Source: an uncultured Candidatus Saccharibacteria bacterium
GTDB lineage: Bacteria > Patescibacteriota > Minisyncoccia > Phycocordibacterales > DAORIS01
NCBI GenBank assembly: GCA_964644035.1
Contig: CAZXUH010000001.1
Coordinates: forward strand, 131,712 to 195,711
Direction: 5' to 3'
DNA length: 64,000 bases
The notes under the pieces are model-generated. The model did not search any database. It had not been told where the DNA came from and saw only the letters and a list, made by a program, of their open reading frames with translations. Shown here one piece after another: positions 24,020 to 46,847 of this stretch (position 1 is its first letter; each line of letters starts with the position of its first letter). The translations under genes and the position numbers were made by a program.

Positions 24020-24090
24020 TGCCAGATCGTCTAACGGTAGGACACCGCCCTTTGGAGGCGGGTATCTTGGTTCGATTCCAAGCCTGGCAG
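24020..24090 (+). tRNA. tRNA-Gln (anticodon TTG); U1:A72 pair, discriminator G, CCA not encoded
   Basis: Hand-folded: acceptor TGCCAGA/CCTGGCA (one 7:66 mismatch), D-stem GTCT/GGAC, anticodon stem CCGCC/GGCGG with loop CTTTGGA, T-arm CTTGG-TTCGATT-CCAAG. The U1:A72 pair is a known Gln identity feature. Confidence 0.6.
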
Positions 24091-24143
24091 CAGTTTTAAG
24101 GCAGAATTAGAATTTTGATAGGTATCTAGTTTATACTTTTATT

Positions 24144-24797
24144 ATGGTCAAGGACATCTTATATAAAGAAAAATTTGAACAATTGCAACACCAGTTGCTA
24201 GCATCCTACTCAACTTTCTATGTATGGAAATCACTCCAAAAAGAAGAATATAATGAATTTTATAAAATAAACAATGGTTTTTGGTCAGCAGTCATTCCAG
24301 CACTACAGCATGAATGGTTTATGGGACTTGCGCGTGTATTTGAGGATTCAGCTTATAGTAAAAAGAATAAGATAATCTCAGTACATTCTCTTATTCAAGA
24401 GCATCCAAATAAGCAAAGAGCAGAAGCCGCTCAAGAATTTCTTGATAAAAACCAAAAAGTTATTAAAAATATATCGCGAATTAGAGATCATCGGCATGCC
24501 CACAATAATGCAAAATTTTTAGTAAATCCAGAAGAATTTGAAAATATTTTTTCCATTCAATATTCTGAGATCGAACATATGTTCGACTTTAGTGGTAAGT
24601 TGCTTAGTCTGTTACATCCAGAAGACGGACATGGATACATGCTGGGTCATATGAAAGATGAAGCTGAGCTTCATACTAAAGATGTTATGGACGGTATTCG
24701 CTACTTTAACTTTAAAAGAAAAGAACACAGAGAAAGATATGTAAAAGAGGGTGGCGATTATCAGTTTCCTCCAACGGACCAAAGTAAGATTAAATAA
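24144..24797 (+). CDS. Hypothetical all-alpha protein, possible HEPN/Abi-like
   Basis: 217 aa. RIRDHRHAH segment (R-x4-H spacing). Sits directly downstream of the tRNA-Gln. Family not confirmed. Confidence 0.45.
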   Translation: MVKDILYKEKFEQLQHQLLASYSTFYVWKSLQKEEYNEFYKINNGFWSAVIPALQHEWFMGLARVFEDSAYSKKNKIISVHSLIQEHPNKQRAEAAQEFLDKNQKVIKNISRIRDHRHAHNNAKFLVNPEEFENIFSIQYSEIEHMFDFSGKLLSLLHPEDGHGYMLGHMKDEAELHTKDVMDGIRYFNFKRKEHRERYVKEGGDYQFPPTDQSKIK

Positions 24798-31752: not shown

Positions 31753-31779
31753 GTCTTCTTTATCAGTTAATCAACTAAC

Positions 31780-33135
31780 ATGAAGAAGATACTACTCAGT
31801 ATTGGCTCTATCATCTTCGCGGGCGCTATCCTCGTCGGGGCGACGGGTGCGTACCTTTCTGACAGCGAGACCTCGACTGGCAATACCTTTGCCACAGGCG
31901 TTATTGATTTGAAAATCGATAATGAAAGCTATGTCACCAATGATTTTGGCAAACTGGTCTTCAGTTCGTCGACTTCATGGGCACTTTCATCGCTTGCCGG
32001 AAAACTCTTTTTCAATTTCTCTGACATTAAGCCAGGGGATATTGGAGAAGACACCATCTCGCTTCACGTAAACAACAACAATGCGTGGGCGTGCATGGCG
32101 GTCAATCTGACCGGCACACCGGAAAACGGTCAAAACGATCCAGAAGCAATCGTTGATCCTACGTCAGGCGCCAATGACGGTGAACTTCAAAATGAACTCA
32201 ACTTTGCTTTCTGGGGTGATGACGGCGACAATGTCTATGAACAAGGAGAGACTATTTTCAAGCAAGGGCTTGTAAAAAATATCTTCAACGGACAAAACTG
32301 GGCGCTTGCCGATTCCGCTACCAATATTTGGGGCACACCGGGACCAATTCTCGGCAATACCGTCAAATATGTTGGCAAAGCATGGTGCTTCGGACCACTT
32401 GGTACTGCTGCCAAGACTCAAGACAACTTGGGTAAGACAGGCAACAACGGACCATTGGTACGCGGAACGGGCTTTACCTGCAGTGGTGACACGATTGGCA
32501 ACATCGTGCAAAGCGATGGTCTCAAAGCCAATGTCAGCTTCACTGCAGTTCAGTCTCGAAACAATGGCAGTTTTGTCTGCGGTCAGACAACAACACCTCC
32601 ACCCCAAGCAACTTCAAGCTCCACATTTCTCTCGGATAATTTCGAAAGTTATACACCAGGGGATGAATGGGATGAAGAATGGCCAGATGGATCGTCGAAT
32701 TATGATTGGGATGAAGTTGGCGGGGTAAAGTTTTTGGCTGGTGTAGGCAATCCCGGAAAGGCAGCCGATCTCAATGCCGACAACAACAATGCCAGCGTTC
32801 CCAATAATAAAGAGACTCTGACGGCCACATATCTCGACGTTACGGGATACAACACGATTGTATTCAAGTATGATCGTAAGACCGATGACACCAATTCGCC
32901 TCCACAGGCAGTTGGTCCTCAGACTTTGAAGGTAGAGTATAGCGTCAATGACGGTGCAAGCTGGACGACGCTCGAGACAGTCAATGGAGAATCCGCATGG
33001 ACGACCAAGACTTTCTCACTCTCACCTTCGGCAAACAACAAACCAAGAGTAAAGGTCAGATTTACATTGACTGGTCAAGACGCAAGTAATCACGCCTACA
33101 TCGACAATGTAACGGTGACAGGCATCACACCTTAG
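31780..33135 (+). CDS. TasA/camelysin-like secreted protein, paralog 2, with distinct C-terminal beta-sandwich-like domain
   Basis: 451 aa. Same SipW-cognate N-terminus (GATGAYLSDSETSTGNTFATGVIDLKIDN). Conserved core GEDTISLHVNNNNAWACMAVNLTG...FAFWGDDGDNVYE...YVGKAWCFG. The unrelated C-terminal region ends ...AYIDNVTVTGI. Confidence 0.7.
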   Translation: MKKILLSIGSIIFAGAILVGATGAYLSDSETSTGNTFATGVIDLKIDNESYVTNDFGKLVFSSSTSWALSSLAGKLFFNFSDIKPGDIGEDTISLHVNNNNAWACMAVNLTGTPENGQNDPEAIVDPTSGANDGELQNELNFAFWGDDGDNVYEQGETIFKQGLVKNIFNGQNWALADSATNIWGTPGPILGNTVKYVGKAWCFGPLGTAAKTQDNLGKTGNNGPLVRGTGFTCSGDTIGNIVQSDGLKANVSFTAVQSRNNGSFVCGQTTTPPPQATSSSTFLSDNFESYTPGDEWDEEWPDGSSNYDWDEVGGVKFLAGVGNPGKAADLNADNNNASVPNNKETLTATYLDVTGYNTIVFKYDRKTDDTNSPPQAVGPQTLKVEYSVNDGASWTTLETVNGESAWTTKTFSLSPSANNKPRVKVRFTLTGQDASNHAYIDNVTVTGITP

Positions 33136-33151
33136 TTATTCATTATTCACC

Positions 33152-34522
33152 ATGAAAAAAATACTGTTAAGCATGAGTGTAATAGTCTTCGTAGCCGGCG
33201 CCTTCGCAGCTGGTGCGACGGGTTCGTTCTTTTCTGACACCGAAACTTCAAGCGGCAATACGTTTACCGCTGGAGCAATCGATCTCAAAATCGACAACTC
33301 AAGCTATTACAACGGTTCACTATCGAGCAGCACCAGCTGGTCGCTGACGGACCTCACGATTCAGAAGTTCTTTGATTTCTCGGACGTTAAGCCAAGTGAC
33401 TACGGCGAAGATACGATTTCGCTGCATGTCGACAACAATGACGCATATTTGTGCGCCAATGTGACGCTTACGAGTAATGATGATAATGGTTTGACCGAGC
33501 CGGAATCGGAAGTCGATCAGACCGCAGGAGTAGGACAGGGCGAGCTTGCCGATGAAGTCAATTTCATCTGGTGGGCGGACGACGGCGACAATGTTCTTGA
33601 AGACAATGAAAATGTCATTTCTCAAGGACCGATCGGTGCACTTGGAGTCAATGGTTCGACAACTGTTCCTCTCGCTGATTCAGAAAACAATATCTGGACA
33701 GGTCAAGGTGGACCAGTGCCTGGAGCGCAGACGCTCTATATCGGCAAGGCGTGGTGCTTTGGCGGTATTACTGCAAACCCTCTCGATCAGGACAATGCGA
33801 CAAGCACCAATCCTAGTCTTGATAACAATGACAACTCAATTGCCGGTGAACCTGCAGACGGAGGATATCTTTGTGATGGATCAGATCTTGATAACAGCAC
33901 TCAAAGCGACAGTCTCACAGCCGACGTAACATTTACCGCTGTGCAGGCACGTCACAATGATGAATTCCTCTGCACACCTCCTCCACCTCCACCAGTGCGA
34001 CTGGCCTGCACTCCTGGACAGGAATGGGCAGATACGGTTGTCACGAGTAATCATGGCAATCGCAAAGATGGATCACTTATCTTAGTTGACCGACGCAATC
34101 CAACATTTGCTCTTGGTCCAGCACAGACAACAGGTACACCTTCGGATGCTGTTGTCACACCAGCGAGTTTCTTTAGCCTTGGATTCAATGTCGGTACAAC
34201 AACAACTCGAAGTCTGACGGTTGCATTCAATGACAACATTATCGTCAATGCAACTGGCAGCGACGTGCGTATCTATGAAGTGACAGGAGGAGTCTATCCC
34301 GATGAACACATCATGGTTGAAGCAAGTCAAAACGGCATTGGATGGACAACCATTGCCGCAGACGCAATTCGCGATGCTGATATTGATCTAGGGGCACTGC
34401 CTTGGGCTAGGTACATTAGAATCACCGACATCAATACAACGGGACCATTCCCAAGTGATGCCGATGGATATGATGTTGATGCTGTCAGGGCACTTAATTG
34501 TGAACAAACACCAGTGGTGTAA
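33152..34522 (+). CDS. TasA/camelysin-like secreted protein, paralog 3, with poly-Pro linker and third distinct C-terminal domain
   Basis: 456 aa. N-terminus GATGSFFSDTETSSGNTFTAGAIDLKIDN. Core nearly collinear with paralog 1 (GEDTISLHVDNNDAYLCANVTLTSNDDNGLTEPESE...NFIWWADDGDNVLE). PPPPPPV linker before a C-terminal domain. Confidence 0.7.
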   Translation: MKKILLSMSVIVFVAGAFAAGATGSFFSDTETSSGNTFTAGAIDLKIDNSSYYNGSLSSSTSWSLTDLTIQKFFDFSDVKPSDYGEDTISLHVDNNDAYLCANVTLTSNDDNGLTEPESEVDQTAGVGQGELADEVNFIWWADDGDNVLEDNENVISQGPIGALGVNGSTTVPLADSENNIWTGQGGPVPGAQTLYIGKAWCFGGITANPLDQDNATSTNPSLDNNDNSIAGEPADGGYLCDGSDLDNSTQSDSLTADVTFTAVQARHNDEFLCTPPPPPPVRLACTPGQEWADTVVTSNHGNRKDGSLILVDRRNPTFALGPAQTTGTPSDAVVTPASFFSLGFNVGTTTTRSLTVAFNDNIIVNATGSDVRIYEVTGGVYPDEHIMVEASQNGIGWTTIAADAIRDADIDLGALPWARYIRITDINTTGPFPSDADGYDVDAVRALNCEQTPVV

Positions 34523-34528
34523 TAACAC

Positions 34529-36097
34529 ATGAAAGTAATCTTCAACACTTTTTACTATCTCTTCATTGCAGGCATAGTAGCCATTGGACTTTTGCTCCTG
34601 GCGACGCTTGTTCCAGTGCCAGGGAATTTCAAGGTGAAAGTGGTGAAATCCGGTTCGATGTCGCCAGCTATACCAACAGGAAGTATCGTGGTCATTAAAC
34701 CCGAAAATTCTTATAGTGTTGGCGATATTATTACCTTCGGTGCAGATACTAAGACTCAGGTTCCTACGACGCACAGAATTATTGCTGTGCAGGGTAGTGG
34801 ATCGGGCAAAGTATTTACCACTCAAGGTGATGCCAACGATGCGCCAGATACGGCAGCAACGCGGCTATCGGATATCAGAGGCAAGGTAGTGTTTTCAGCG
34901 CCGTATGTCGGCTATGTGCTCGACTTCGGAAGGAAACCATTAGGTTTTGCACTGCTTGTAGGTGTTCCAGCACTCTCTATTATCTTCGATGAAATCATGA
35001 AGATCGTCAGAGAGATTAGAAGAATTCGCCGAAAGAAAAACCATCCAGAAGACAATATCGATGAATCTGCAAGTGGAGTGAGTACTACAGTACACAATAC
35101 TGTACAACCGCCAACAGTTACATCTACCTATTATCCGAAACATGACATAGCCAATAAAAGGATGATGTCAGCATCGATGGATGGAATAGTCAGACCTCAA
35201 CAGATAAGGAGGAATATAGAAAGTAATGCAGCCAGCCGGGCCTATCAGGTCCAGCCTGGGCGTGTAGCATATTTTTCCGCTCGAACACTTCTCGTGGCCT
35301 TCGTAGCTGCTGGGTGTATGTTTGGTCTGTCTTCTATAGGCGGTACGCTGTCATATTTCAATGACAGCGAAACATCGACAGCTAATCTTCTAAGAGCGGG
35401 AATACTTGATGTCGAAATTTCACCCATTCTTACGGACAATAGTGTTGCTCGTTTGAGTGTACCTGATGAGACAGCAAGCACGACCGAAGAAGTCAAAGAC
35501 AAACCGACAAGCAGCCAGCTCTTCAGAATTTCTCTTACTGATAGTGATAAGGAAAATGTACCTTTTCTTTACACGGTCTTTGGGGAATTCAATAAAGACA
35601 ATCCCGCTGGTTGCGAAGCAGTAGAGCTCAGCGTCTTCATGAATGAATATCATTATGATGGACTGCTGTCATCATTTGCTTTGCCGGCAACATCTGCGGC
35701 TGGTACAGGGCAGTTTATTGTCTCGGCACCAACCGGAGATTCTATTCTTGCATCGGGGGCAATATGTGCAGGTAATCTTATTTTCAGGGCTTATCCTGAA
35801 AATACAGAAGATCCGCTCAATTCGCCTTTCTCAGATGAGGAAAGGTATCCTTTCACGGTTCAAAATTATATTGAACCAGTGTCGATACCAGCAGCTCAAG
35901 AAATAGTTGCAGAATCTGTAGTTATTGAGGTTCCAAAAGAAACAGCAGAAGAAATAATAACTAATCCAGAAACAGAGAGTGAAACTCCTGTAACGGAAGT
36001 AATTGTTGAACCTGTTTCAGAGCCTGTGGTAGATATACCCCTTGTACCTGAGACATCAGCTACTGAAACACCACATACTTCTACCGAAACTATATAA
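34529..36097 (+). CDS. SipW-type (archaeal-type, S26B) signal peptidase I, fused in frame to a C-terminal protein that itself begins with a SipW-cognate signal peptide
   Basis: Residues ~1-175: N-terminal TM, VVKSGSMSPAIPTGSIVVIKP...THRIIAV...TQGDANDAPD...GKVVFSAPYVGYV, C-terminal TM (compare SipW VLSGSMEP). Residues ~215-522: basic n-region, h-region TLLVAFVAAGCMFGLSSIGG, then TLSYFNDSETSTANLLRAGILDVEISP (TasA-type cleavage region) and an acidic Pro/Glu/Thr-rich tail. There is no in-frame stop between the two parts. Confidence 0.65.
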   Translation: MKVIFNTFYYLFIAGIVAIGLLLLATLVPVPGNFKVKVVKSGSMSPAIPTGSIVVIKPENSYSVGDIITFGADTKTQVPTTHRIIAVQGSGSGKVFTTQGDANDAPDTAATRLSDIRGKVVFSAPYVGYVLDFGRKPLGFALLVGVPALSIIFDEIMKIVREIRRIRRKKNHPEDNIDESASGVSTTVHNTVQPPTVTSTYYPKHDIANKRMMSASMDGIVRPQQIRRNIESNAASRAYQVQPGRVAYFSARTLLVAFVAAGCMFGLSSIGGTLSYFNDSETSTANLLRAGILDVEISPILTDNSVARLSVPDETASTTEEVKDKPTSSQLFRISLTDSDKENVPFLYTVFGEFNKDNPAGCEAVELSVFMNEYHYDGLLSSFALPATSAAGTGQFIVSAPTGDSILASGAICAGNLIFRAYPENTEDPLNSPFSDEERYPFTVQNYIEPVSIPAAQEIVAESVVIEVPKETAEEIITNPETESETPVTEVIVEPVSEPVVDIPLVPETSATETPHTSTETI

Positions 36098-36198: not shown

Positions 36199-37644
36199 TT
36201 ACTCCATTTCCTCGATCTTTTTAATGAGATATTTTTCAGTAAGCTTAATGTTGTCTGAGAATTTCTTAAGTATCTTCGCTTCTTCTTTTGTGAGTTTTTT
36301 ATCACCCTTTGCGTTTTCAAGCGTCTCAACATGTTCATTGAGATCATCTTCGAGCAATTTCATTGCGCGATGAATTTCATTCTTAGTTTCGTGCAAGACT
36401 TTGTCAGTGCTTTGTTTAGGCTTTCTCGTCTTACGCATGATGAAGTAGGTGAGAGCCCAGACAAAGAGTAGTAGGCCAAGTATGGATACTATGAGAAGCA
36501 AGGTGCTATTTGCAAGGAGTGAGGTTGTGCCGCTAGTCTTTGCGGTATTTGGTTCAGGGAAGTTTATTGATAGCGATTCTTCTGCTGTATTGCCCGCAGC
36601 ATCGAATGCTTTGACAGTTACACCACGAATGCCTGCCGGTACATTGGCAAAGGTGTATCGTGTAGGGCCATTGGCGTTTGTACTCTTTATTTCAGCAGGT
36701 GCCTGACCATCTACAGTAATCAAATATTTTGCAATACCCGACGCACTATCTTTGGCAGAAATATCTATAACAGCCTGACCTGAATCCAGGATCGAATGGT
36801 TTACAGTAAGTGACTCTGGAGCAGTAGTATCGATTTTGACCTTTCTATGCGTAATTTTGCCCCAACCAGAACTATCTCTATATCGGATGTGGAAATATGA
36901 AAGCCCTTCTTCTATATCATTGACCTCTTTTGAATTTATAGCTGGTGTATAGGAAACAGTTGGTGTTGAGTCGGGATCTCTATCAAATAAAAGCTGAAGA
37001 GAAGTTACCCCTTTTGGAACTGACCAGAGAAAGGTTGTGTCGCTAAGAGAATACCATTTCTCAGGATCAGGCATGTCCTTTGAGGACACAATAGGAGCAG
37101 CTGGACCTACTTCTGTAGGTTTAGGAGTCTCTTTTACCTCTGGTGTCGTAGGTTTTGTGGCTGGAGGTGCGGTCACGACGACTGATACTCCGGTTTTACT
37201 TTGGGTAGCGTCGGTTCCTAGGCCGTCATTGGCACGGACGGTGGCTGATTGGAATGCAATTGTGGCTTTGCCATCTCTCTTGGCGCGCATTTGTATCGAC
37301 AAAACCTTGCCGGCTGAACCTGTATATCCAGGGTTAGGTACGCCACCATTAAACGTCACCATGCCGCCAGAAAATGCAGGCTGCTCTACCCACAAACTAA
37401 GCACCGATCCAGTGGTATTGACTGAAAGAATCTCCAGAATATCAGAGGGGACTGAAATCACCCCTTCGACGCTATTGATAGGAACGCCGTTGGTATTGAC
37501 GTAGATAGTTGCTGTGACTGTTTCGCCAGTTTGAACCTCAGCTCTTCCGGTCGTGATATACACGCTTGCAGCATCTATAACCTGAGCGGAAAGAAAGAAT
37601 CCTGCAATGATGACGGTTACGATAACATTCTTTAAAATCTTCAT
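36199..37644 (-). CDS. Cohesin-like domain protein with C-terminal TM anchor and cytoplasmic coiled-coil tail
   Basis: 481 aa. Signal peptide. GETVTATIYVNTNGVPINSVEGVISVPSDILEILSVNTTGSVLSLWVEQPAFSGGMVTFNGGVPNP...GKVLSIQMRAKRDG follows the cohesin pattern (GDTVxVPV...NxDFxxxYDPxVLE...G.I.F.F...DG.FA.I.FKV). Then Thr/Pro-rich linkers, Ig-like repeats, the TM helix LLLIVSILGLLLFVWALTYFI and a charged tail. Confidence 0.5.
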   Translation of the reverse strand: MKILKNVIVTVIIAGFFLSAQVIDAASVYITTGRAEVQTGETVTATIYVNTNGVPINSVEGVISVPSDILEILSVNTTGSVLSLWVEQPAFSGGMVTFNGGVPNPGYTGSAGKVLSIQMRAKRDGKATIAFQSATVRANDGLGTDATQSKTGVSVVVTAPPATKPTTPEVKETPKPTEVGPAAPIVSSKDMPDPEKWYSLSDTTFLWSVPKGVTSLQLLFDRDPDSTPTVSYTPAINSKEVNDIEEGLSYFHIRYRDSSGWGKITHRKVKIDTTAPESLTVNHSILDSGQAVIDISAKDSASGIAKYLITVDGQAPAEIKSTNANGPTRYTFANVPAGIRGVTVKAFDAAGNTAEESLSINFPEPNTAKTSGTTSLLANSTLLLIVSILGLLLFVWALTYFIMRKTRKPKQSTDKVLHETKNEIHRAMKLLEDDLNEHVETLENAKGDKKLTKEEAKILKKFSDNIKLTEKYLIKKIEEME

Positions 37645-38531
37645 TTCTTCTTTAATGAATATTTATAGATAACAATGCCGATAATGATAAGTACTGCTAT
37701 GTTGAGAATGAGCCACAACATTTGATTATTCGATGTTCCTGAAGCAGCTTTTGAAGTTTTTACAGTAACAGATTTGATATTTCCAGCATTGTCGACAGCA
37801 CGAACGGTTAGTTCTCCAGAGAGTGATTGATCTTGGAGAATATATGTATTGCCCGAGCGTACGAGAGGTAAGTCATTTTCTATGACTTCATAACGATTGA
37901 TACCCGATTCGAGATCGATAGCATTGAAGCTGGCGAAATATTTGCCATCGTAGGTGTCTTTGTCATAGCCGATCACTACGTCGAAATTTTGCGGTGCGAT
38001 CTTGTCGGCAAGTATAATTTCTGTAAGTTCATTGGATGTTGCTCCAGTCGTTTGTGTGACATCGATAGTAGAAGATTTGCCCGTCACCGACACTTTGGTG
38101 CCTTTGCCATCATGCAAAAATACAAATGCATTATCAAATGAAGCGTTTAGAGAACCAGGTGTGGTAGGTCTTATAGCAATAGAAAATACTTTTAGTCGAC
38201 TGCCAGAAATACCAGACGTAGCACCGCCGGTAAAGGTAATTTTCTTTCCTGAGAAAGAAGGTTTGTTTGGCCAAAGACTAAATAGGGAACTATTGGTTGT
38301 GATTGCTGTTATTTCATATTCACCCTCAATGGTCAGTGATCCTTCGACAACGTTTATTTCTTGTTTTTCAGTATCAAGTATGACATCGACGATAACTGTA
38401 TCTCCCGCATGCACGATTTGTGACGGTTCATTGAGATAGATAGACATTGCACGAGTTGTCGCAGGTAAGCACACAAAAGCTGTACAAATAGCTAGAGAAA
38501 ATAAAATCTGTTGTATAAAGGTGTGTTTCAT
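37641..38531 (-). CDS. Secreted cohesin-like domain protein (paralog of the N-terminal domain of the downstream gene) with C-terminal TM
   Basis: 296 aa. AGDTVIVDVILDTEKQEINVVEGSLTIEGEYEITAITTNSSLFSLWPNKPSFSGKKITFTGGATSG...LKVFSIAIRP shares the cohesin-like pattern. C-terminal hydrophobic helix. ATGA overlap with the next gene. Confidence 0.5.
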   Translation of the reverse strand: MKHTFIQQILFSLAICTAFVCLPATTRAMSIYLNEPSQIVHAGDTVIVDVILDTEKQEINVVEGSLTIEGEYEITAITTNSSLFSLWPNKPSFSGKKITFTGGATSGISGSRLKVFSIAIRPTTPGSLNASFDNAFVFLHDGKGTKVSVTGKSSTIDVTQTTGATSNELTEIILADKIAPQNFDVVIGYDKDTYDGKYFASFNAIDLESGINRYEVIENDLPLVRSGNTYILQDQSLSGELTVRAVDNAGNIKSVTVKTSKAASGTSNNQMLWLILNIAVLIIIGIVIYKYSLKKK

Positions 38532-38533
38532 TT

Positions 38534-40852
38534 TTATAATGCTTTACCTGCCGTACCCCATTGCGAGAGCAGTATTGAAAAGTCTATTGAATCGACACGT
38601 CGGTCTTTGTTGATATCAACGCATGTATTCTTAAATGGTGGAGCGGTCTTCCAGAAAGCGAGCAATATAGAGAAGTCAACTGAGTTTACATTGTTGTCGC
38701 CATTGAGGTCTGCTCCTTTGCAGGCTCCTTGCGGAGTTGGTACGGGAGTAGGTGCTGGTGCACCTCCACCGCCTCCACCACCGCCGGGTGAGGGTGTTGG
38801 AGTAGGATCAGGAGTGCTATCACTGGTAATGGTAAATGAACGTGATGAACCTGATGATTCGGTGCCGAAGTAGACGACAACCTTGAAGTAATACGAGCCA
38901 GCTGTCGAAACTGTAGCAGTAAGATTGGTATTCCAGTCTTCACCAGGGTTGATGAATTTTGCGCCGGTGCCATGGTAGACATCATTGCCACCACCGCAAG
39001 CATTGTCGGACTGACTGACGACGCACCATTCGTATTGGTATTCATAACCAGCCAAACCTTCATTGGTAATTGTTAGATTTGCACTGACGTTTGGTGTGCT
39101 CGTAGCGGTGACGCTATTGATAATCACTTGGGCAGGCGAGCCGGCGACAAGCCAATAGTCATTGGTTGTAATGATTTTGCCGCTTTCGACTTCTGTTTCT
39201 ACGACTGATTCCCATACACCCTGTGACGCTCCTGAAGAGACAGAGTATGTGTATTCATAGAGTCCAGCTCCAATATCGGTCATCGGTACAGAAGAGACTA
39301 CGACGTTTCTATCAGCATCGTAGAGTGTGATTTCTGGAGCGGCAAAAACATCTTGGGCAATACTCGAGCTATTGAGTGTTGATACTTTTGCTCGGTACGT
39401 ACTGCCATTTTGAACAGATGAATAGTCGGACATAGTTACGAGCCATGTTGCAGTTTGATTGGCCAAAGATGCGCGTGAAGAAGTAGTGGTATCGATATTA
39501 TCTGCGAGGCGCTTACCAATGGAGTTGACCGTATTGAGACTTGAAGTAAGGGTATTCCAGACATCGGCGGCAGTAATATCGTTGCCATATTGGGTTAGAG
39601 TTCGTGCGCTGTTACCCCACACAGCTGAAACAATACTTGATGTTGAATAGTCGGTCAGAGTTCTGCTGGTTACGCTCCATACATCTGCTGCAGTGAGCGT
39701 ACTCGTACTTCTACTTGATATCTGTGCATCGATATTGTCAGCTAGGCGTTTGCCAATACTGCCTGATGTGGTGAGTTGGGCTGCAGCACGATTCCATACT
39801 TCATACGCTGTTGTTGAAGCCAAAGAAGCTGCGTTTGTCGATGATCCATAATCAGTAAGTGATCGACTCGCATGAGTCCAAATATCTGTTGCAGAAATAT
39901 CGTTGAGACCATTTATAAGATTCCTATTGGCAAGTATTTCAGCAAAAATACCCGATGTGGCAATCTGAAGACTTGAAGTCAAATCAGTATTGGTGACCAA
40001 TGATCCGCCTGAACTAAGTGTAGAGTCGGTAAGTCGTCGTGTTGCGTTACTCCATATTGCTGAAGCAATGCTTGTTGTGGAATAGTTGGTGAGTGTTCTA
40101 GTTGTTGCATTCCAGACTTCATCAGCGGTCAAACTACTTGTTCCACGACTTGAAATTTGTGCGTCGATATTGTCTGCAAGAAGTTTTCCGAATGTTCCTG
40201 GTGAGGCAAAGCCGGCAACAGCTCTATTCCATACCTCATATGCTGTTGTCGAAGCAACTGTCGATGATCCATAATCGGTAAGTGTTCTACCTGTAAAGTT
40301 CCAAATATCACTTACTACAGATCCGAGAGATGAAAGTGTCCTTGTGCCACTATTCCAGACTGCTGAAGCAATGCTGCTTGTTGAAACAGCGGCTGAAGCA
40401 ACGGTAAATGTTCTATCTGTTTTAATAAGATCTCCTGCAAGGGCTGTGCCGCAGGTCATAGATGTAGGCCAATTGCCAAGTGCAGCATCAGAAGCAAGGG
40501 AATATGAATAATAATGCCAGCCAGTTGCTTCGGCAGTCATGGTTGCATTGTTTACTTTTTGAGTGCTTGTCGAATCGTATATTGTTACCCAGCAAGGAGT
40601 AGTGGTAGCTGAATAATTGTCATCGTATACAAATTCGCCAATAGTAACCGTATCTCCAGGGGAATATCTCTGATACTGGGCAAATGCCGTATGTGAAAAA
40701 CTAATACCAAATGTAAATAAAAACAGTAAAAAGAATAGTTTTGATTTTAGAGAATAATGTTTTTTACAAAAAATAGAGTAATGCATGGAAGTAGCAGTCC
40801 AATTGCTCATAATGATAGCCCATATAGCATTAGTTATCAACACGATATGCAT
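38534..40852 (-). CDS. Large secreted repeat protein with C-terminal type-I dockerin domain
   Basis: 772 aa. Likely start at the internal MHYSIF (signal peptide KKHYSLKSKLFFLLFLFTFGISFSHTAFA|QY). At least ten ~19-aa repeats of consensus xxA(S/D)(D/E)VWNxx(T/S)RTLT(D/N)Y(G/S)S, within a duplicated ~110-aa super-repeat. PTPTPSPGGGGGGGGAPAPTPVPTP linker. C-terminal GADLNGDNNVNSVDFSILLAFW...DINKDRRVDSIDFSILLSQWG is a duplicated F-hand dockerin. Confidence 0.55.
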   Translation of the reverse strand: MHIVLITNAIWAIIMSNWTATSMHYSIFCKKHYSLKSKLFFLLFLFTFGISFSHTAFAQYQRYSPGDTVTIGEFVYDDNYSATTTPCWVTIYDSTSTQKVNNATMTAEATGWHYYSYSLASDAALGNWPTSMTCGTALAGDLIKTDRTFTVASAAVSTSSIASAVWNSGTRTLSSLGSVVSDIWNFTGRTLTDYGSSTVASTTAYEVWNRAVAGFASPGTFGKLLADNIDAQISSRGTSSLTADEVWNATTRTLTNYSTTSIASAIWSNATRRLTDSTLSSGGSLVTNTDLTSSLQIATSGIFAEILANRNLINGLNDISATDIWTHASRSLTDYGSSTNAASLASTTAYEVWNRAAAQLTTSGSIGKRLADNIDAQISSRSTSTLTAADVWSVTSRTLTDYSTSSIVSAVWGNSARTLTQYGNDITAADVWNTLTSSLNTVNSIGKRLADNIDTTTSSRASLANQTATWLVTMSDYSSVQNGSTYRAKVSTLNSSSIAQDVFAAPEITLYDADRNVVVSSVPMTDIGAGLYEYTYSVSSGASQGVWESVVETEVESGKIITTNDYWLVAGSPAQVIINSVTATSTPNVSANLTITNEGLAGYEYQYEWCVVSQSDNACGGGNDVYHGTGAKFINPGEDWNTNLTATVSTAGSYYFKVVVYFGTESSGSSRSFTITSDSTPDPTPTPSPGGGGGGGGAPAPTPVPTPQGACKGADLNGDNNVNSVDFSILLAFWKTAPPFKNTCVDINKDRRVDSIDFSILLSQWGTAGKAL

Positions 40853-40903: not shown

Positions 40904-41557
40904 ATGTCGCCTACGAAGAACACTACCAGAAAAAAAGATGATCCTTCGTTGCTCGATTTACGGGCACGCAAAACTGCTGCTCAGGCGGCTGTAGCGGCAC
41001 GAGCAATTAGAGAAAAAAAGATTCAGATAGAGGAAGAAAAAAATAAAGAAGAAGATGATAAGAAAAGAGCATTTCTCAAAGTTGCTGGCGTGGCCGGAGT
41101 AGGTTTGATCGCTTCTCAGATTATTCCGCAAAAAGCCGAAGCGTTGATCATGGGAGGCACACCTTCTGCGAGTGTTGTAGGTGTAAAGAATGCAAACAAT
41201 ACAAGAATCAATCCTGCAACCGAAGAAACGCTATCTTTGCTGCTTGCCGGCCAGGGAGTTACCAAACTAACCATCAATCTTTCTTCTTCGGGCAATGTCC
41301 ACACTCCAGCAGCAGGGAAAAAGATACGTGTCTATGCCTCTCGTTTTTCTCTAACTGCTGATGCGACTTCCGTTTCTTTTCGTTTTACAGCTGGCGGCAC
41401 TGATCATGAAAAATATGTTTCTCCAAAAGCTGGAGGTCTCTATGGAGCAAATAATCATCCAAATTATATAGAAGGGGGAGCCGATCAGGTGCTATACTGT
41501 GTCATATCAGGAACAACCACGGTTCAAATTAACATTGATTATTTGGAAGTTTCCTAA
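40904..41557 (+). CDS. Exported/membrane protein with Tat-like (KR variant) signal and beta-rich domain
   Basis: 217 aa. Long basic n-region, KRAFLK, a Gly/Ala-rich weakly hydrophobic h-region VAGVAGVGLIAS, and AEA|L. This is a twin-arginine-like signal with KR in place of RR. Confidence 0.45.
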   Translation: MSPTKNTTRKKDDPSLLDLRARKTAAQAAVAARAIREKKIQIEEEKNKEEDDKKRAFLKVAGVAGVGLIASQIIPQKAEALIMGGTPSASVVGVKNANNTRINPATEETLSLLLAGQGVTKLTINLSSSGNVHTPAAGKKIRVYASRFSLTADATSVSFRFTAGGTDHEKYVSPKAGGLYGANNHPNYIEGGADQVLYCVISGTTTVQINIDYLEVS

Positions 41558-41563
41558 ATCTAT

Positions 41564-44227
41564 ATGGCAAAACGAGCAATAGAACATCTTTTCACTGGAG
41601 CAACTACGCCGTATACGATATACGATTCATCGAAGACGGTATTGGGAGATTTGATTCAGCAGTATAGTGGACTCACTCCAACCGACAACTTCGCTGGTCC
41701 TGCCAAAATGGGTGTAGCACGACCAATGGAAACAGGAACCAACGTTCCAGGTGTATTTCCGCACGTTATTTCATGGGCTGACAAATCTGGTCTTTATACT
41801 ACAGGTACTGTTTCAGTATCGGGAGTCAACGTTACCGGTAGCGGCACAGGCTGGCTGGCCAATGGAGTGCCGATTGGGGCGAGAATTGGTTTTGGTTCTA
41901 CAAATAATGCTGATATCACTACATGGTATACCATTGCAGCTATCCCTTCGGCTACATCTCTGACCCTCGCAACTCCTGCGGGTACTATCGCCGGCGGTAC
42001 AGCTTTTGTTATTGATAAGACACTTCAAAAAGATTGGGTATTTCTAGCTGACAACCTTGGCGCAGCGGTCACGAGACGTATTACCTGTTTTATTTACGAT
42101 CGCACTACGTCACTCTTTACATGGAGAGGTTTTATTATCATGACCTATGCAGCTGGCGGAGGCACGCAGACTATAAGAGGTATGCGTATTATTTACGATA
42201 CCTATACAACAGGCACTATAGAAGTCGCTGGCGCTACGGTCACTGGCACTGGTACAGCATGGTCTGCAAGTCGTATGTCGATCGGTTCTCGAATAGGTTT
42301 TGGAAGTACTGATCCGACGCAAATTGCCACATGGTATTACATCAATGCTGTCAACTCCGATACGTCTATAACAATACAATCAACCGTCACGACGTCGGGT
42401 ACCGGAGGTACAGCTGCAAATATTACGATTGGCTCAGGTACTGCGTATGTTATCGAAGATTTAAAAGTTCTTACAGCTACTACAGCTGCCGTGCTTGCTG
42501 CAGCTGGACTTTCTATGACCAATGGTTTGGCATTCGATGATTTTACGGTTGGCGGTACGACCATTGCCGCAGCAACAACGGTAGACAAAACAAAGGTTGT
42601 ATATAGCTTGGTTGATCTTGACTCTGTATATAGTACCGGCACGGTGACCGTGCCAACATCTACTACCGTAACTGGTGTTGGTACTGCGTGGACGGCTGCG
42701 CTTTATTTGGGTTGTAGAATTGGTTTTGGTTCTACAAACCCTGCTTCGATTACTACGTGGTACACCATTACTGCTGTGGCATCGACTACCTCCATGACTA
42801 TTTCATCAAATGCGACGGTTGCCGGCGGTTCAAACTATGTAATCGTTGGAGGCAACGGCGTAGCCTGCGGATTGGCGATAGACGACAGAGTAAGTTGGAC
42901 CGAACAGTATGCCTATGTGTTGGAAATGCAGGCCGCTACAACACCGCAAGTATATAAATATAATTTTAGAACCGATCTTACAACGCTTGGAGGCATTGCT
43001 ACGGGGAAAACGTCTTCAGCGTGGGTGCTGACAACGGGTTTACAGACGATTGCTGGCTCTCTAACCCAAACCAACAATGGGAGAATAGGTGCGCTCGGAC
43101 ATGGACCAGGTGCAGGAGTAAAATGTTTGTATTTCGTTTCCGGTACGAGGGTTCACCGTGCTCCGCTTACTGATATTACCCAAGGTAGTACGACATGGAT
43201 ATCAGATTCTATGACCGAAGTACCGACAGGCGGATCTTCGACGTATACACTTTCGAGCTTGCTGACAAGCGTAGAAATTGCCGACCAGATCGATAGACTT
43301 ATTTTGACGTCCACTGGTGCTGGTGCGACAGTTGCGCATCATCGAGCGTACATTACCAAGTACGACGCTTCGGGTTCATATGAATTTGATCATATTTTCA
43401 TGACTGATACAGGTCAGCAAGACCAAAGTACCGCCGATTCAGATTCGACTCCTCACCCAAATACCCAAGGCGCTGCGTTGTCTGTATGGTCTCAGGGTGG
43501 TTTGGTGTATATGGCTCGTGCTGGTTTGGCTGCTACAACCAATATAATGTATGCAGTACCACTTGGTGCCGATTGGGAATATGCGACTGGTACTGTGAAG
43601 CAAAGGCTTATCACTCCTGCTATGGCTACGACCAATGCTATAAAACTTTCAAAAGTGTATGTTAACAATGCTGATTATCTTGGTGCAGGAGGTCTCACTA
43701 TGCCAACAGAACCGATACGACTGTATTATCGAACTTCCGATATAGATGATGATTCGGGGGTCTGGACATTGGTAGATCCGACAGGTGATCTTTCTGCTGC
43801 GACAGCAACCGATGAGATTCAGTTTGCAATTGAATTCCGCACTATTGGAGCAATTTGCATACCAAATAGAATTTACAATATCTGCTGCACATACGAGGAC
43901 GATACGACCGATAGTCACTACCAGCCTTCGGTTGCCCATTCATCTACAACAGGCAAGATGTTTGCGTGGAGATTTTCTACAGCCTTTGGAAGTACGGTAC
44001 CAACGCTTAGAATCAGGCTTTACAATGCTTCAACAGGTGGTTTGCTGCTTGATGATACGACCACAGCTTCAGCTGCAGGAACATTTGAAAAATCTACCAA
44101 TGATGGCGCTGCGTGGGGATCGTACAATACTACTGACAAGGGTGTAAGTGAAACAACATATATTCGATATACACCAACTGTTCTTGCTGACAACATCAAA
44201 GTAAGAGCATTGCTCACCCAAAACTAA
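41564..44227 (+). CDS. Large Thr/Gly-rich repeat protein (three ~75-aa repeats), no signal peptide
   Basis: 887 aa. Repeats at about aa 80-150, 210-290 and 345-420, with consensus TGT(V/I)xVxGxxVTGxGTxW...IGxRIGFGSTxxxxITTWYTIxAV...(AGG)xxYVI. Beta-rich with low charge. Confidence 0.5.
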   Translation: MAKRAIEHLFTGATTPYTIYDSSKTVLGDLIQQYSGLTPTDNFAGPAKMGVARPMETGTNVPGVFPHVISWADKSGLYTTGTVSVSGVNVTGSGTGWLANGVPIGARIGFGSTNNADITTWYTIAAIPSATSLTLATPAGTIAGGTAFVIDKTLQKDWVFLADNLGAAVTRRITCFIYDRTTSLFTWRGFIIMTYAAGGGTQTIRGMRIIYDTYTTGTIEVAGATVTGTGTAWSASRMSIGSRIGFGSTDPTQIATWYYINAVNSDTSITIQSTVTTSGTGGTAANITIGSGTAYVIEDLKVLTATTAAVLAAAGLSMTNGLAFDDFTVGGTTIAAATTVDKTKVVYSLVDLDSVYSTGTVTVPTSTTVTGVGTAWTAALYLGCRIGFGSTNPASITTWYTITAVASTTSMTISSNATVAGGSNYVIVGGNGVACGLAIDDRVSWTEQYAYVLEMQAATTPQVYKYNFRTDLTTLGGIATGKTSSAWVLTTGLQTIAGSLTQTNNGRIGALGHGPGAGVKCLYFVSGTRVHRAPLTDITQGSTTWISDSMTEVPTGGSSTYTLSSLLTSVEIADQIDRLILTSTGAGATVAHHRAYITKYDASGSYEFDHIFMTDTGQQDQSTADSDSTPHPNTQGAALSVWSQGGLVYMARAGLAATTNIMYAVPLGADWEYATGTVKQRLITPAMATTNAIKLSKVYVNNADYLGAGGLTMPTEPIRLYYRTSDIDDDSGVWTLVDPTGDLSAATATDEIQFAIEFRTIGAICIPNRIYNICCTYEDDTTDSHYQPSVAHSSTTGKMFAWRFSTAFGSTVPTLRIRLYNASTGGLLLDDTTTASAAGTFEKSTNDGAAWGSYNTTDKGVSETTYIRYTPTVLADNIKVRALLTQN

Positions 44228-44241
44228 TATTCAGAACTGCT

Positions 44242-44982
44242 ATGATTCATATTGAGAAAGATCAAAACGTTGCTGAGAATCCAAATCTCAAAATCATGAC
44301 TCCAACAGGTGACTATGATGACAATGCTAATATAGAATTTTATGATGTCGGTAATCCAGAAATCGCCGCAGGTTCATTCCAAGCTCAATATGTAAAATAT
44401 GGCGGTCTGGTCTACAAATTCAACGATCCCAAGGAATTGGGCAATGAAATTCTCAAAATCGATCCAACGTCGACTCATACTGCAGCGTCATATGTGCGTA
44501 TGACCAATGATCTCTTGGCTCAAATGAATAGTGGATCACTCGAACCATCTTCGCTCGATCAAGCTCTTGCAAGTGAACAAGTAAAGATGGAGGAAAAAAT
44601 GGAAGAGGAGATGATCAGTGATACCAATGCAATAATTACAGACACTACAGCAACAAGCACACCTGCTGCCGATCTTCCGACGAATACTCCAGTACAGAAT
44701 CCAACCAATAACCTTGTTTCGTCTACAACACCAGCAGCATCTTTGGAAACTTCGACTACGACTCCTGCATATACACTTGAAACATCAACATCTACTCCCG
44801 CTTCTAGTGGTATTTCAACATCCACACCTTCTTCAGCTTCGTCCACACCAACTTTAAATGATACTGCATCATCAACTATCGATGCTATTAGTAAGACAGT
44901 TAATAAAATTTCAAGTACTACTGATGCAATTTCAAATGCTGTAGAAACTATTATTAGTTCGACTACTTCTCCTACATCTTAA
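44242..44982 (+). CDS. Protein with Ser/Thr-rich low-complexity C-terminal half (mucin-like)
   Basis: 246 aa. Globular N-terminal ~120 aa, then TTATSTPAADLPTNTPVQNPTNNLVSSTTPAASLETSTTTPAYTLETSTSTPASSGISTSTPSS... Confidence 0.45.
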   Translation: MIHIEKDQNVAENPNLKIMTPTGDYDDNANIEFYDVGNPEIAAGSFQAQYVKYGGLVYKFNDPKELGNEILKIDPTSTHTAASYVRMTNDLLAQMNSGSLEPSSLDQALASEQVKMEEKMEEEMISDTNAIITDTTATSTPAADLPTNTPVQNPTNNLVSSTTPAASLETSTTTPAYTLETSTSTPASSGISTSTPSSASSTPTLNDTASSTIDAISKTVNKISSTTDAISNAVETIISSTTSPTS

Positions 44983-44987
44983 TCCAT

Positions 44988-45167
44988 ATGGCTCTTACCG
45001 ATGTCAATTTCCAAGAAGGGGAAGGTCAGGACTATATTGTGGAATTACCGACAGCTTCGTATTCAGGAACTCTCTCGGATATATCGACTGAAACAGACAG
45101 CACTCAGTATTCGGTATTAGAAGTACCAGCTACAGAGGGTGGCAATATCTTTATCATGTCAGAATAG
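44988..45167 (+). CDS. Small acidic ORF (59 aa), not in the supplied track
   Basis: MALTDVNFQEGEGQDYIVELPTASYSGTLSDISTETDSTQYSVLEVPATEGGNIFIMSE. Fills the gap between the S/T-rich gene and tatC. Low support. Confidence 0.2.
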   Translation: MALTDVNFQEGEGQDYIVELPTASYSGTLSDISTETDSTQYSVLEVPATEGGNIFIMSE

Positions 45168-45170
45168 GCT

Positions 45171-45893
45171 ATGGACGAGCTGCAGAAAAAAATAAAAGAA
45201 TACTCTCCATTTTTAGAAGACCTTTTTAGGAGAATATACTTTGTAACAGTCTTTTTTGTAGCAGCTTTTGTTGTCAGTTTTTTACTTTCAGGACCGCTTA
45301 TAAAGTATTTGATCAAATTTTTTGATTTCAAGGATGTAGTCTTGGCCGCAACCTCTCCATTTCAACTCATTGACCTCGCAATGAATTCAGGAATCTTTTT
45401 TGCAGTTGTGTTTACGGTGCCAGTGATCCTGTATCACACATACGCATTCATCGGAAGCGGTCTGAGGAGAGGGGAGAAAAAATTCTTTTTTCTTTTGCTT
45501 CCAATCGCACTTCTATTATTTCTTTTTGGTTTTGTATACAGCTTTTGTATCCTGTATTTTGCCATGCAAACACTCGCTAGTATCAATCTAGCGCTTGGTG
45601 TGCAAAATCTCTGGAATATAAGCATGTTTCTTTCAGAAATTATCTCTACGTCGGCTCTACTTGGGCTTATTTTTGAGTTTCCCATATTTGTAACAGTGCT
45701 CGTAAAAATGGGTGTAATCAGTGTCGATTTTCTTAAACAAAAGAGGCGATATGCAGTCTTTATTATGTTCATCGGCACTTCTTTACTTCCCCCAACCGAT
45801 GGTATATCATTATTGATGATGGTGTTGCCACTGGTGATTATTTATGAGATCACGATCATCTATAATCAAGTAAGTTTCAGGCAATTAGCTTAA
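45171..45893 (+). CDS. tatC: Twin-arginine translocase subunit TatC
   Basis: 240 aa with 6 TM helices. N-terminal amphipathic segment and TatC-like topology (LSGPLIKYLIKFF..., FFAVVFTVPVILYHTYAFIGSGLRRGEKK). Confidence 0.75.
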   Translation: MDELQKKIKEYSPFLEDLFRRIYFVTVFFVAAFVVSFLLSGPLIKYLIKFFDFKDVVLAATSPFQLIDLAMNSGIFFAVVFTVPVILYHTYAFIGSGLRRGEKKFFFLLLPIALLLFLFGFVYSFCILYFAMQTLASINLALGVQNLWNISMFLSEIISTSALLGLIFEFPIFVTVLVKMGVISVDFLKQKRRYAVFIMFIGTSLLPPTDGISLLMMVLPLVIIYEITIIYNQVSFRQLA

Positions 45894-45918
45894 ATTATAA
45901 CTAAATACTACTAATACA

Positions 45919-46095
45919 ATGTTTGGACTTGGAACAAGAGAGCTGATAATCATTGCTGTAATCTTCATTCTACTTTTTGGTGCTAAGAAAATTCCGGAAT
46001 TGGCAAAAAGTCTTGTCGATGCAGTACGTCACATGCGCGGAGCATTCAAAGATGGAGACGAATCTAAGCCAACAGACGATTCGCGACGAAGCTAG
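45919..46095 (+). CDS. tatA: Twin-arginine translocase subunit TatA/E
   Basis: 58 aa, not in the track (<60 aa). MFGLGTRELIIIAVIFILLFGAKKIPELAKSLVDAVRHMRGAFKDG... matches the TatA consensus (MFGxGxxELxIIxVIxLLxFGxKKLPELxxxLG). Confidence 0.75.
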   Translation: MFGLGTRELIIIAVIFILLFGAKKIPELAKSLVDAVRHMRGAFKDGDESKPTDDSRRS

Positions 46096-46103
46096 TCCAA
46101 GTT

Positions 46104-46847
46104 CTACCCCTCTATTGCGAGCAAAAGGAGCATTGAGCCGATACCGATACTAATCGCAATCAACTGGATCACCGAATAGGTGAACTTTTTGGTCTTATGA
46201 AGTTCTGGAATGAGATCTGACATCGCTATATAGATAAATCCGCCTGCTGCTACAGGAATGAGCCAGAGGATGAGACTTTCAGTCATAGTACCAAGTATGA
46301 GAGCAATGATGACACCGACTATGGCAAAAAGAGCAGAAAGAAAGTTGAGCCACAGAGCTTTTGATTTTGTGTAGCCAGCATGCAACAGCACACCAAAATC
46401 TCCTATTTCTTGTGGGATTTCATGCAAAATAACAGCAATCGTTGTAGCAATACCAACTTCTATACTTATAAGATAGCTGGCGCCAATAATAATACCGTCT
46501 ATGAGATTGTGAATACCGTCGGATACTAAAATAAGATTGCCTATTGGATGTGGCGCATGATCCTCAATACCATGATGATGCCAGTGTAGAAATTTTTCTA
46601 ATACAAAAAAGATAAAGATACCACCAACAATAGCAAGTGCGAGATTGGTCGGATTGCCTATCTGCTCAAATGCTTCAGGAATGAGATGTATGAATGCGTC
46701 GCCAAGAAGGGCACCAACAGCCAGACTCACTAAAATAAAGACATACTTTTTAAGTAGTTTTTCATTGAGCGATAGGGTAAAGAGTCCAATGAGTGAAATA
46801 AGGCTGACAACGATTACGCTGGCGAGCGAATATAGATAGATAGCCAT
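46104..46847 (-). CDS. ZIP-family divalent metal transporter (ZupT-like)
   Basis: ORF to 46907; the probable start is the internal Met MAIYLYSL. HEIPQEIGDFGVLLHAG signature of ZIP transporters. Confidence 0.75.
   Translation of the reverse strand: MAIYLYSLASVIVVSLISLIGLFTLSLNEKLLKKYVFILVSLAVGALLGDAFIHLIPEAFEQIGNPTNLALAIVGGIFIFFVLEKFLHWHHHGIEDHAPHPIGNLILVSDGIHNLIDGIIIGASYLISIEVGIATTIAVILHEIPQEIGDFGVLLHAGYTKSKALWLNFLSALFAIVGVIIALILGTMTESLILWLIPVAAGGFIYIAMSDLIPELHKTKKFTYSVIQLIAISIGIGSMLLLLAIEG

Follow-up and report, generated by a model that had tools for sequence, protein, structure and literature searches.

Bacillus subtilis encodes a minimal TatAC translocase of the Tat (twin-arginine translocation) pathway together with a dedicated substrate, in phoD-tatAd-tatCd, and natural Tat signals of the Lys-Arg type are represented by Salmonella TtrB and the plant Rieske Fe/S protein. 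Tat export of signal-less proteins bound to a signal-bearing partner is also established: co-export has been proven for the hitch-hiker complexes HybO-HybC, DmsA-DmsB and PaoABC of Escherichia coli (PMC4273604). The presence of TatA and TatC has been noted in Patescibacteria (PMC9166423); in the literature, we found no proposed Tat client in Patescibacteria and no account of the gene cluster that is analysed here. This cluster lies in a stretch of 64,000 nucleotides (the window, to which all positions refer unless a locus is named) of contig CAZXUH010000001.1 of assembly GCA_964644035.1, and consists of four genes without annotation (p217, p887, p246 and p59) followed by tatC and tatA. The best-supported account of its sequence is that the cluster is likely a dedicated TatAC operon whose client is the product of p217. 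On balance we also favour the broader reading that it is a conserved operon of Paceibacteria type, in which a minimal TatC/TatA pair serves its own phage-derived cargo, with p217 supplying a Lys-Arg Tat signal and its partners being carried along.

The six open reading frames (ORFs) run head to tail on the + strand, where the original prediction had placed them, and their intergenic gaps of 3-25 nt are consistent with one operon. They encode, in order, p217 (217 aa, 40904-41557), the putative precursor of a Tat-signal protein and founding member of an unannotated Patescibacteria family; p887 (887 aa, 41564-44227), a fibre-like protein made up of a conserved N-terminus (residues 1-75), three repeats and a C-terminal part (431-887); p246 (246 aa, 44242-44982), with a conserved N-terminal region of ~110 aa and a variable low-complexity tail; p59 (59 aa, 44988-45167), a small acidic protein; TatC (240 aa, 45171-45893); and TatA (58 aa, 45919-46095). 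A terminator-like hairpin follows tatA (46169-46183), and promoter sites were predicted by a scan no more often than in shuffled sequence. Neither Pfam nor NCBIfam contains a family that matches p217, p887, p246 or p59. What the prediction had said of the individual proteins stands: the 59-aa ORF, put forward as possible, is a real gene, having homologues of 55-63 aa with both ends fixed (MALTD(I/V)NFQ...GGGNIFIMSE before the stop codon) in 86 of 88 loci, and contains 11 acidic and no basic residues; the 887-aa protein is rich in Thr and Gly (16.7% Thr, 10.9% Ala, 10.5% Gly) and carries three repeats; and the tail of p246 that was described as mucin-like (residues 120-246) is 46% Ser+Thr in the window, and acidic or Pro-rich in other loci. 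No signal or hydrophobic segment is present in p887, p246 or p59.

The tatC and tatA calls are likewise genuine (Pfam TatC, 1e-37; Pfam TatA_B_E, 4e-13, with a further match to TIGR01411). TatC scores 130.4 bits against PF00902 (cut-off 25.1), and its scores below the NCBIfam equivalog cut-offs are consistent with a divergent lineage. TatA scores 48.8 bits against PF02416 (cut-off 21) and has the N-terminal helix and F-G hinge of this family, reading ...ILLFGAKKIPE...; as tatA is the only TatA/B-type gene in the window, the system appears to be of TatAC type. Alignment of 20 TatC proteins from such clusters identifies E16, F93, L98 and E102 as the counterparts of E. coli E15, F94, L99 and E103, the positions that bind the signal; F93 and E102 are invariant, and E16 and L98 nearly invariant.

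The N-terminal region of p217 reads ...DDK-K54-R55-A-F57-L-K59, continues with VAGVAGVGLIASQIIP and ends in QK-A78-E-A80, ahead of LIMGG. Its layout is tripartite: a basic n-region (residues 1-53); the KR-form twin-arginine motif K54-R55-A-F57-L-K59 at the boundary of n- and h-regions (41063..41080, + strand); an h-region, V60-P75; and a c-region of residues 76-80, Q-K77-A78-E-A80, with a predicted signal-peptidase site after A80 (h- and c-regions, 41081..41143, + strand). An alignment of 26 homologues shows no variation at D51, R55, F57, K59, A78 or A80 and hardly any at K54, in agreement with the AEA-L cleavage site of the original prediction, and P-x-K/R-A-[EDS]-A, combining a basic c-region residue with an A-x-A site, is conserved in the family. 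The window protein has K-R where the consensus S/T-R-R-x-F-L-K has two consecutive arginines, and this is the usual form: of the 214 family proteins in which the motif is found, 199 have K at its first position, 14 have R and one has N. There are looser variants as well, RKRHLLK and KRRIFLR among them. Many family members begin M-(L/I)-x-x-K-(Y/H/N)-S-F-(R/S)-L, 35-60 residues ahead of the motif; the start of the window p217 differs. These features support the conclusion that the N-terminus of p217 is a Tat signal of the Lys-Arg type.

A 2026 cryo-electron microscopy structure of TatBC with a bound signal peptide shows the second Arg salt-bridged to TatC E103, the signal Phe in a pocket under F94, and the first Arg in contact with E15 via a water molecule only (PMC13323110). 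Because the contact of the first Arg is water-mediated, Lys is plausible at that position, and the conservation pattern of the p217 motif, as read from aligned sequences, fits this structure.

An ordinary Sec signal or a membrane anchor, with K-R-x-F-L-K and tatCA irrelevant to export, is the other way to read this N-terminus. The substitution of Lys for the first Arg in 199 of 214 members would agree with it, as would the score of a 19-residue segment of the h-region, which by a crude measure of hydrophobicity equals those of the Sec signals of neighbouring proteins. However, when Sec signals from the same genomes are compared with the core of the h-region, the latter proves far less hydrophobic: the best 12-residue segment has a median Kyte-Doolittle score of 1.97 with 2.6 Gly in the p217 family, compared with 2.7-2.8 and 0.5 Gly for the Sec signals of the homologues of g296 and g481 (two genes of the neighbourhood, described below) in the same loci (p = 1.5e-26). 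The typical Tat anatomy originally proposed for the 217-aa protein, KRAFLK followed by a Gly-rich, weakly hydrophobic h-region, is conserved. Moreover, the motif positions that contact TatC are invariant, and 14 members have RR. Among the loci scanned, the motif is also confined to this family. The pattern [KR]R.[FLM][LIVMF][KRQ] followed by 16 uncharged residues, sought within the first 130 aa of 3473 ORFs of at least 80 aa (from the 64-kb window and from 159 related loci of up to about 20 kb each, 1.9 Mb in all), matches 100 times; 97 matches are N-termini of the p217 family, according to a reading of the listed sequences, and the rest comprise two helices from within TatC and, in L026, a 64-aa ORF that is spurious. 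This pattern scan detects no Tat-type signal besides that of p217 in the window, and none that is genuine outside the p217 family across the 159 loci. Considering also that the linkage to tatC holds in both search directions (see below), we regard the reading as a Sec signal or anchor as improbable and conclude that p217 is quite probably exported by Tat.

Genes related to p217 are consistently found beside tatC. A scan with p217 of one genome per species, with window proteins placed by tblastn, yields 79 loci, of which 60 have tatC within 10 kb; these are all of the loci with enough flanking sequence, as the contigs of the other 19 end 0.2-9 kb past p217, many at ~1.1 kb, inside the p887 repeats. 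The order p217, p887, p246, p59, tatC, with tatC downstream, is found in 53 of the p217-found loci; the remaining seven tatC-bearing loci have tatC or tatA elsewhere in the locus, or a middle gene that is undetected. A p887 homologue directly follows p217 in 77 of the 79 loci, and p246 is present between the p887 and p59 genes in 86 loci. In the reverse direction, a TatC profile run against metagenomes retrieves 80 loci, 21 of which have at least 5 kb upstream of tatC; in 19 of these a Tat-signal gene of the p217 family lies beside tatC, with tatA and three further genes (the trio g772, g296 and g481) downstream, and the two exceptions (L100 and L101) possess p887, p246 and p59 on contigs that end before p217 could appear. 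The outer flanks are not conserved: in p217- and TatC-found loci, the genes ZIP, g382 and g566, which are the remaining neighbours of the cluster in the window, almost never adjoin it. Whereas an unrelated context of tatCA in relatives would have spoken against the original prediction, the opposite is seen in all 60 p217-found loci with enough flanking sequence and in 19 of 21 TatC-found loci: in this TatC clade, tatCA occurs with this cluster. As in the PhoD-TatAdCd type of operon, the putative substrate gene and tatC/tatA form one conserved unit on the same strand.

Within 54 complete loci, p217 is the most conserved gene of the cluster, with a median identity to the window protein of 68%, followed by tatA (67%), p887 (58%), p59 (54%), tatC (46%), g772 (45%), p246 (44%), g481 (37%) and g296 (36%). 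The window belongs to a Patescibacteria genome, and all p217 homologues from named sources are labelled Parcubacteria, Paceibacteria or similar. Many of the metagenome-assembled genomes that contain the cluster (among L001-L079) are titled 'uncultured Candidatus Saccharibacteria' or 'Gammaproteobacteria' in third-party annotation records, which looks like mislabelling.

More than 681 homologues of p217 are found at E <= 1e-3, 65-85% identical, and a profile search of 1.84 billion representatives returns 319 relatives of two kinds. The first kind has the signal and the NPATEE units in common with p217; the second is longer and signal-less, and has NPATEE and the C-terminal ~100 aa in common. 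The unit in question, VVGVKNANNTRINPATEETL (41174..41233, + strand), is present in 2-4 copies in some family members (P0038, P0121, P0130, P0132, P0138 and P0149) and also in phage homologues. AlphaFold2 modelling of mature p217 with an alignment of 52 sequences, distant relatives included, gives an overall predicted local distance difference test score (pLDDT) of 86 and a C-terminal eight-strand jelly-roll (residues 119-217; 41258..41554, + strand) with pLDDT above 95; modelling of the full-length protein with 26 close homologues was unusable (pLDDT 51). Fold matches of the jelly-roll in the PDB are weak (a phage cement protein, the satellite tobacco mosaic virus capsid and Ena fibre subunits; query-normalised template modelling (TM) score about 0.4), and a sequence search of PDB chains with the p217 profile gave no match. 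Matches in BFVD are better and all viral, namely small proteins of uncultured Caudovirales (the best of which have a target-normalised TM score of 0.57-0.77 and a root-mean-square deviation of 1.9-4.9 A). We also considered whether p217 has a metal site of the cupredoxin or cupin type and rejected this on inspection, the required pattern of His, Cys and Met not being conserved.

The signal-less relatives of p217 point to a virion origin of the module. They occur on contigs with phage genes: L164 encodes a terminase (1e-10), a portal protein and a major head protein (2e-16); L166 encodes a terminase (1e-12), a connector and a major head protein (8e-24); and L167 encodes GP3_package and Terminase_6N. 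On these three contigs the jelly-roll gene follows that of the head protein at a distance of two to three genes. With p217 residues ~117-216, the phage jelly-rolls of L162-L166 share 53-61% identity, and that of L167 shares 43% over a longer alignment; in place of a signal they have a coiled-coil N-terminus of 200-500 aa. A p887 homologue lies directly after the jelly-roll gene on L162 (E 2e-93), L163 and L166 (E 4e-49), and on L162 it is followed by a 108-aa protein with the ends of p59 (MALTD...GGGNVFVICD before the stop codon) and then by two small membrane ORFs; proteins of 287-289 aa on L164 and L165 end in GGGTNIFV(I/L)SD, like the C-terminus of p59. A PHROGs search of L162 gave no match, and this contig is taken to be that of a phage because of the gene content that it has in common with L164 and L166 and its two holin-like small ORFs. 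In a separate observation, the major head protein of L166 (8317-9414; phrog_267, 8e-24) contains an inserted domain of ~75 aa that matches the N-terminal domain of the tail-fibre PHROGs 1980 and 2712.

The second gene of the module also resembles a virion component. The three repeats of p887, each of ~70 aa (residues 78-150, 214-297 and 356-427; 41795..42844, + strand), are 39-48% identical and have the motif Y-x-T-G-T...V-T-G-x-G-T-x-W...G-x-R-I-G-F-G-S-T...W-Y. They match the tail-fibre family phrog_1591 in three stretches (2.6e-19) at its N-terminal positions 3-77 of 484, and phrog_1980 also matches one repeat; neither family is matched over its full length, and the rest of p887, including the conserved C-terminal part of 457 aa, matches no phage family. 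PDB-chain sequence searches with p887 alone or with its profile, and tblastn comparisons of both p887 and p217 with 50,697 phage records, returned no match; nor did p246 match any family in Pfam, PHROGs or NCBIfam. Comparison of sequence and gene order nevertheless leads us to equate p217, p887 and p59 with parts of a putative phage virion module.

The PHROG tail-fibre matches, the viral fold matches and the homologues on phage contigs could also be expected of a prophage remnant or mobile element that lies beside tatCA by chance. Such an origin of the present arrangement is very improbable, however, since no terminase, portal or capsid gene accompanies the block in the window or the loci, and no phage head or tail genes surround the window cluster; the same order with tatCA is maintained in at least 60 species-level genomes with differing outer flanks; p217 is under strong purifying selection; and the Tat signal is confined to cellular copies of p217 relatives. 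In addition, no relative was found in cultured phages, and an IMG/VR scan with the p217 profile yielded no confirmed relative. We propose instead a history in which the cell adopted a virion-fibre module from a phage, a Tat signal replaced the coiled-coil N-terminus encoded by the first gene, and tatCA was added.

On this proposal, the cargo proteins would fold and assemble in the cytoplasm like phage fibres; TatC would bind K-R-x-F-L-K of p217 via the conserved Glu, Phe, Glu site; the folded cargo would cross the membrane through TatA; signal peptidase would cleave after A-E-A; the signal-less partners would exit bound to p217 by hitch-hiking; and a fibre or adhesin would form at the surface, beside a Sec-exported MG2/dockerin protein and two membrane-anchored partners. 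As in the hitch-hiker complexes, p887, p246 and p59 are signal-less proteins encoded with the signal-bearing subunit. They are likely to leave with p217, we argue, since the virion parts to which they are homologous undergo assembly in the cytoplasm, since they are inherited together with p217 in cells and phages, and since no other export route is visible for them; taking co-export of the partners by itself, we give it somewhat less than an even chance.

It is also conceivable, though rather unlikely, that p217 alone is exported by Tat or anchored, and that p887, p246 and p59 remain in the cytoplasm, where they would help p217 as chaperones, proof-readers or factors for its assembly, or act elsewhere. 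These three proteins have neither a signal nor a hydrophobic segment, p887 would be a very large Tat passenger, and a small acidic protein whose gene adjoins that of a Tat substrate can act as a chaperone that binds the signal (such as NapD and the TorD family). Against this, p887 contains three repeats of tail-fibre type, varies in repeat number between genomes, is present as 2-4 tandem paralogues in some of them and is the site of frequent assembly breaks, and therefore behaves as an exposed binding protein rather than as a chaperone; and the homologous pair of p217 and p887 sits among phage virion genes. The breaks are contig ends ~1.0-1.3 kb past the p217 stop codon (L007, L011, L013, L015, L016, L031, L032, L034, L053, L061 and L075), and as these assemblies stop inside the p887 repeat region, the repeats or strain-level variation appear to break assembly.

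Variant clusters likewise argue for a specific partnership of the signal protein with the gene that follows it. In a second kind of cluster, class B (L086, L123, L125, L137, L140 and L143), the signal and NPATEE units are kept, the C-terminus differs (...NLxFS), and the next gene encodes a different protein of ~950 aa that begins with NNLK.QVDLP.WEW or with a related sequence, NNLK.V.DLPIFE.C. In type, the signal protein thus tracks its neighbour: jelly-roll proteins are paired with p887, at the frequency given above, and class B proteins with the ~950-aa protein, while L092 represents a third gene combination. The gene before tatC in L086, L125, L140 and L092 encodes a protein without a signal, in which a coiled-coil head is joined to a glucosaminidase (cell-wall hydrolase) domain of the GH73 family and a low-complexity tail (L086 9042-9938, L125 6159-6707 and L092 7681-8694); this protein may help to open the wall for the structure that is exported. 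Three further observations concern these clusters: Tat-signal genes form tandem pairs in L086 (4166-6337; 206 + 514 aa) and L143 (3705-6102; 244 + 545 aa); the longer tandem Tat-signal proteins, like P0229 and P0239, hold internal repeats of ~70 aa (G.AT...W..N.WA...V.I..GTG.GQ.R.I.SNT...L); and an ORF resembling a GIY-YIG nuclease (KFCYVYILRS...YTGCT; L092 7310-7609) is inserted between the fibre genes and the GH73 gene.

The trio of genes that accompanies the cluster encodes Sec-exported proteins. In the window its genes diverge from p217 on the - strand: g772 (38534-40852), the first of them, has a Sec signal, an MG2 domain (Pfam, 1.2e-10), Ser/Thr-rich repeats and a C-terminal dockerin (Dockerin_1, 3.2e-8); g296 (37641-38531) and its paralogue g481 (36199-37644) each have a Sec signal, a beta domain common to both at the N-terminus, Ig-like domains and, at the C-terminus, a membrane anchor, with hydrophobic segments at both ends. 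The N-terminal domains of g296 and g481 are 34% identical (E 5e-20); their identity as cohesins, which would make them partners of the g772 dockerin, was considered from a likeness by eye only and was unconfirmed by Pfam or PDB sequence search, a PDB-chain sequence search with g481 giving no match. In the commonest full arrangement (25 loci), g772, g296 and g481 follow tatA on the same strand; the trio is inverted upstream, as in the window, in 13 loci. Most loci have g772 adjoining the Tat cluster, either divergent upstream or downstream of tatA, and g296 and g481 are syntenic with g772 in at least 40 loci.

In a bolder reading, Paceibacteria would use Tat to assemble an entire organelle of the cell surface: a fibre of phage origin, made of p217, p887 and p59 and perhaps p246, would be folded and assembled in the cytoplasm, exported whole on a single Lys-Arg signal, displayed beside a dockerin-based scaffold and used to bind other cells. 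We consider this reading doubtful as a whole, and a role of the cluster in attachment, taken by itself, is an equally tentative suggestion. If the organelle were real, it would be a Tat-dependent surface appendage without a described counterpart, a phage receptor-binding module domesticated by the cell and a binding device of an episymbiont.

Several points weigh against the favoured account of p217 and its partners. The Lys-Arg form of the signal fails rule-based Tat predictors, which demand RR and would reject KR; the n-region, at 53 aa, is unusually long; and the signal could escape cleavage and anchor the protein in the membrane. We see neither a cofactor nor any other known ground for a dependence on Tat, and the conservation of p217 is far stronger than exposed proteins of the surface usually show. 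At 92 kDa, p887 is very large for a Tat passenger, and a trimer of it, should it form one as phage fibres do, would, to our knowledge, exceed any known Tat cargo in size. Finally, the phage homologues come from uncultured contigs.

Elsewhere in the window, four consecutive genes on the + strand (30082-36097) have N-termini that resemble camelysin/TasA (Peptidase_M73, weak), and the last of them (34529-36097) also has an N-terminal S26/S24 signal-peptidase region; this combination looks like a TasA/SipW-like fibre set. The GC content of this region is 0.45-0.48, compared with about 0.41 for the whole window. A HEPN abortive-infection protein of AbiU2 type is encoded at 24144-24797 (+ strand; Pfam, 9.6e-12), directly after tRNA-Gln (24020-24091), and the stretch past it (24.8-27.8 kb) contains short ORFs only.

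If the account of p217 given above is correct, its module provides a concrete candidate Tat client for Patescibacteria, organisms without the redox enzymes that usually justify Tat, and the need of phage fibres to fold in the cytoplasm would supply the reason for Tat in these bacteria. A whole family that relies on Lys-Arg is a natural experiment on the strictness of the twin-arginine rule; a variable, duplicated, fibre-like module is a lead on partner attachment in Paceibacteria, none of which has been cultured alone; and the cluster would be a case of exaptation, in which a virion module has been taken over by the cell.

Comparison with described systems indicates which of these features have precedents. 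The virion pair of uncultured phages (L162, L163, L164, L166 and L167) has the jelly-roll domain, the p887-like gene next to it, termini like those of p59 and the NPATEE unit, but it differs in having a long coiled-coil N-terminus and no signal, in its position after terminase, portal and head genes, and in the lack of tat genes nearby. The p887 repeat of ~75 aa resembles the N-terminus of phage tail fibres of phrog_1591. The small eight-strand jelly-roll is like those of the phage KHP40 cement protein (7dou) and of Bacillus Ena3A and Ena1B (8pdz and 7a02), although the likeness is at the level of fold only (query-normalised TM score 0.39-0.45, 9-13% identity), without a sequence relation. Like TtrB and the plant Rieske protein, p217 has Lys for the first Arg and keeps the second Arg and the hydrophobic positions; whereas those are single proteins, KR is the rule in the entire p217 family and RR the minority. 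The cluster resembles the hitch-hiker complexes in having one Tat-signal subunit with signal-less partners in the same operon, for which a pre-assembled exit is proposed; those complexes, however, are cofactor-bearing redox enzymes, whereas in the present case nothing points to a cofactor, the partners resemble fibres and their co-export is putative. As in phoD-tatAd-tatCd, TatA and TatC without TatB are encoded in the same operon as the signal-bearing protein, apparently their main or only client. Unlike that system, the cargo is a jelly-roll protein of phage type with three signal-less partners rather than a phosphodiesterase, the order is substrate ... tatC-tatA, KR is family-wide and conservation of the operon extends over a lineage of class rank whose genomes are tiny. 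The differences from what has been described thus lie in the cargo, which is a fibre module derived from phage; in the use of KR by a whole family; and in conservation throughout a class in which no Tat client has been proposed.

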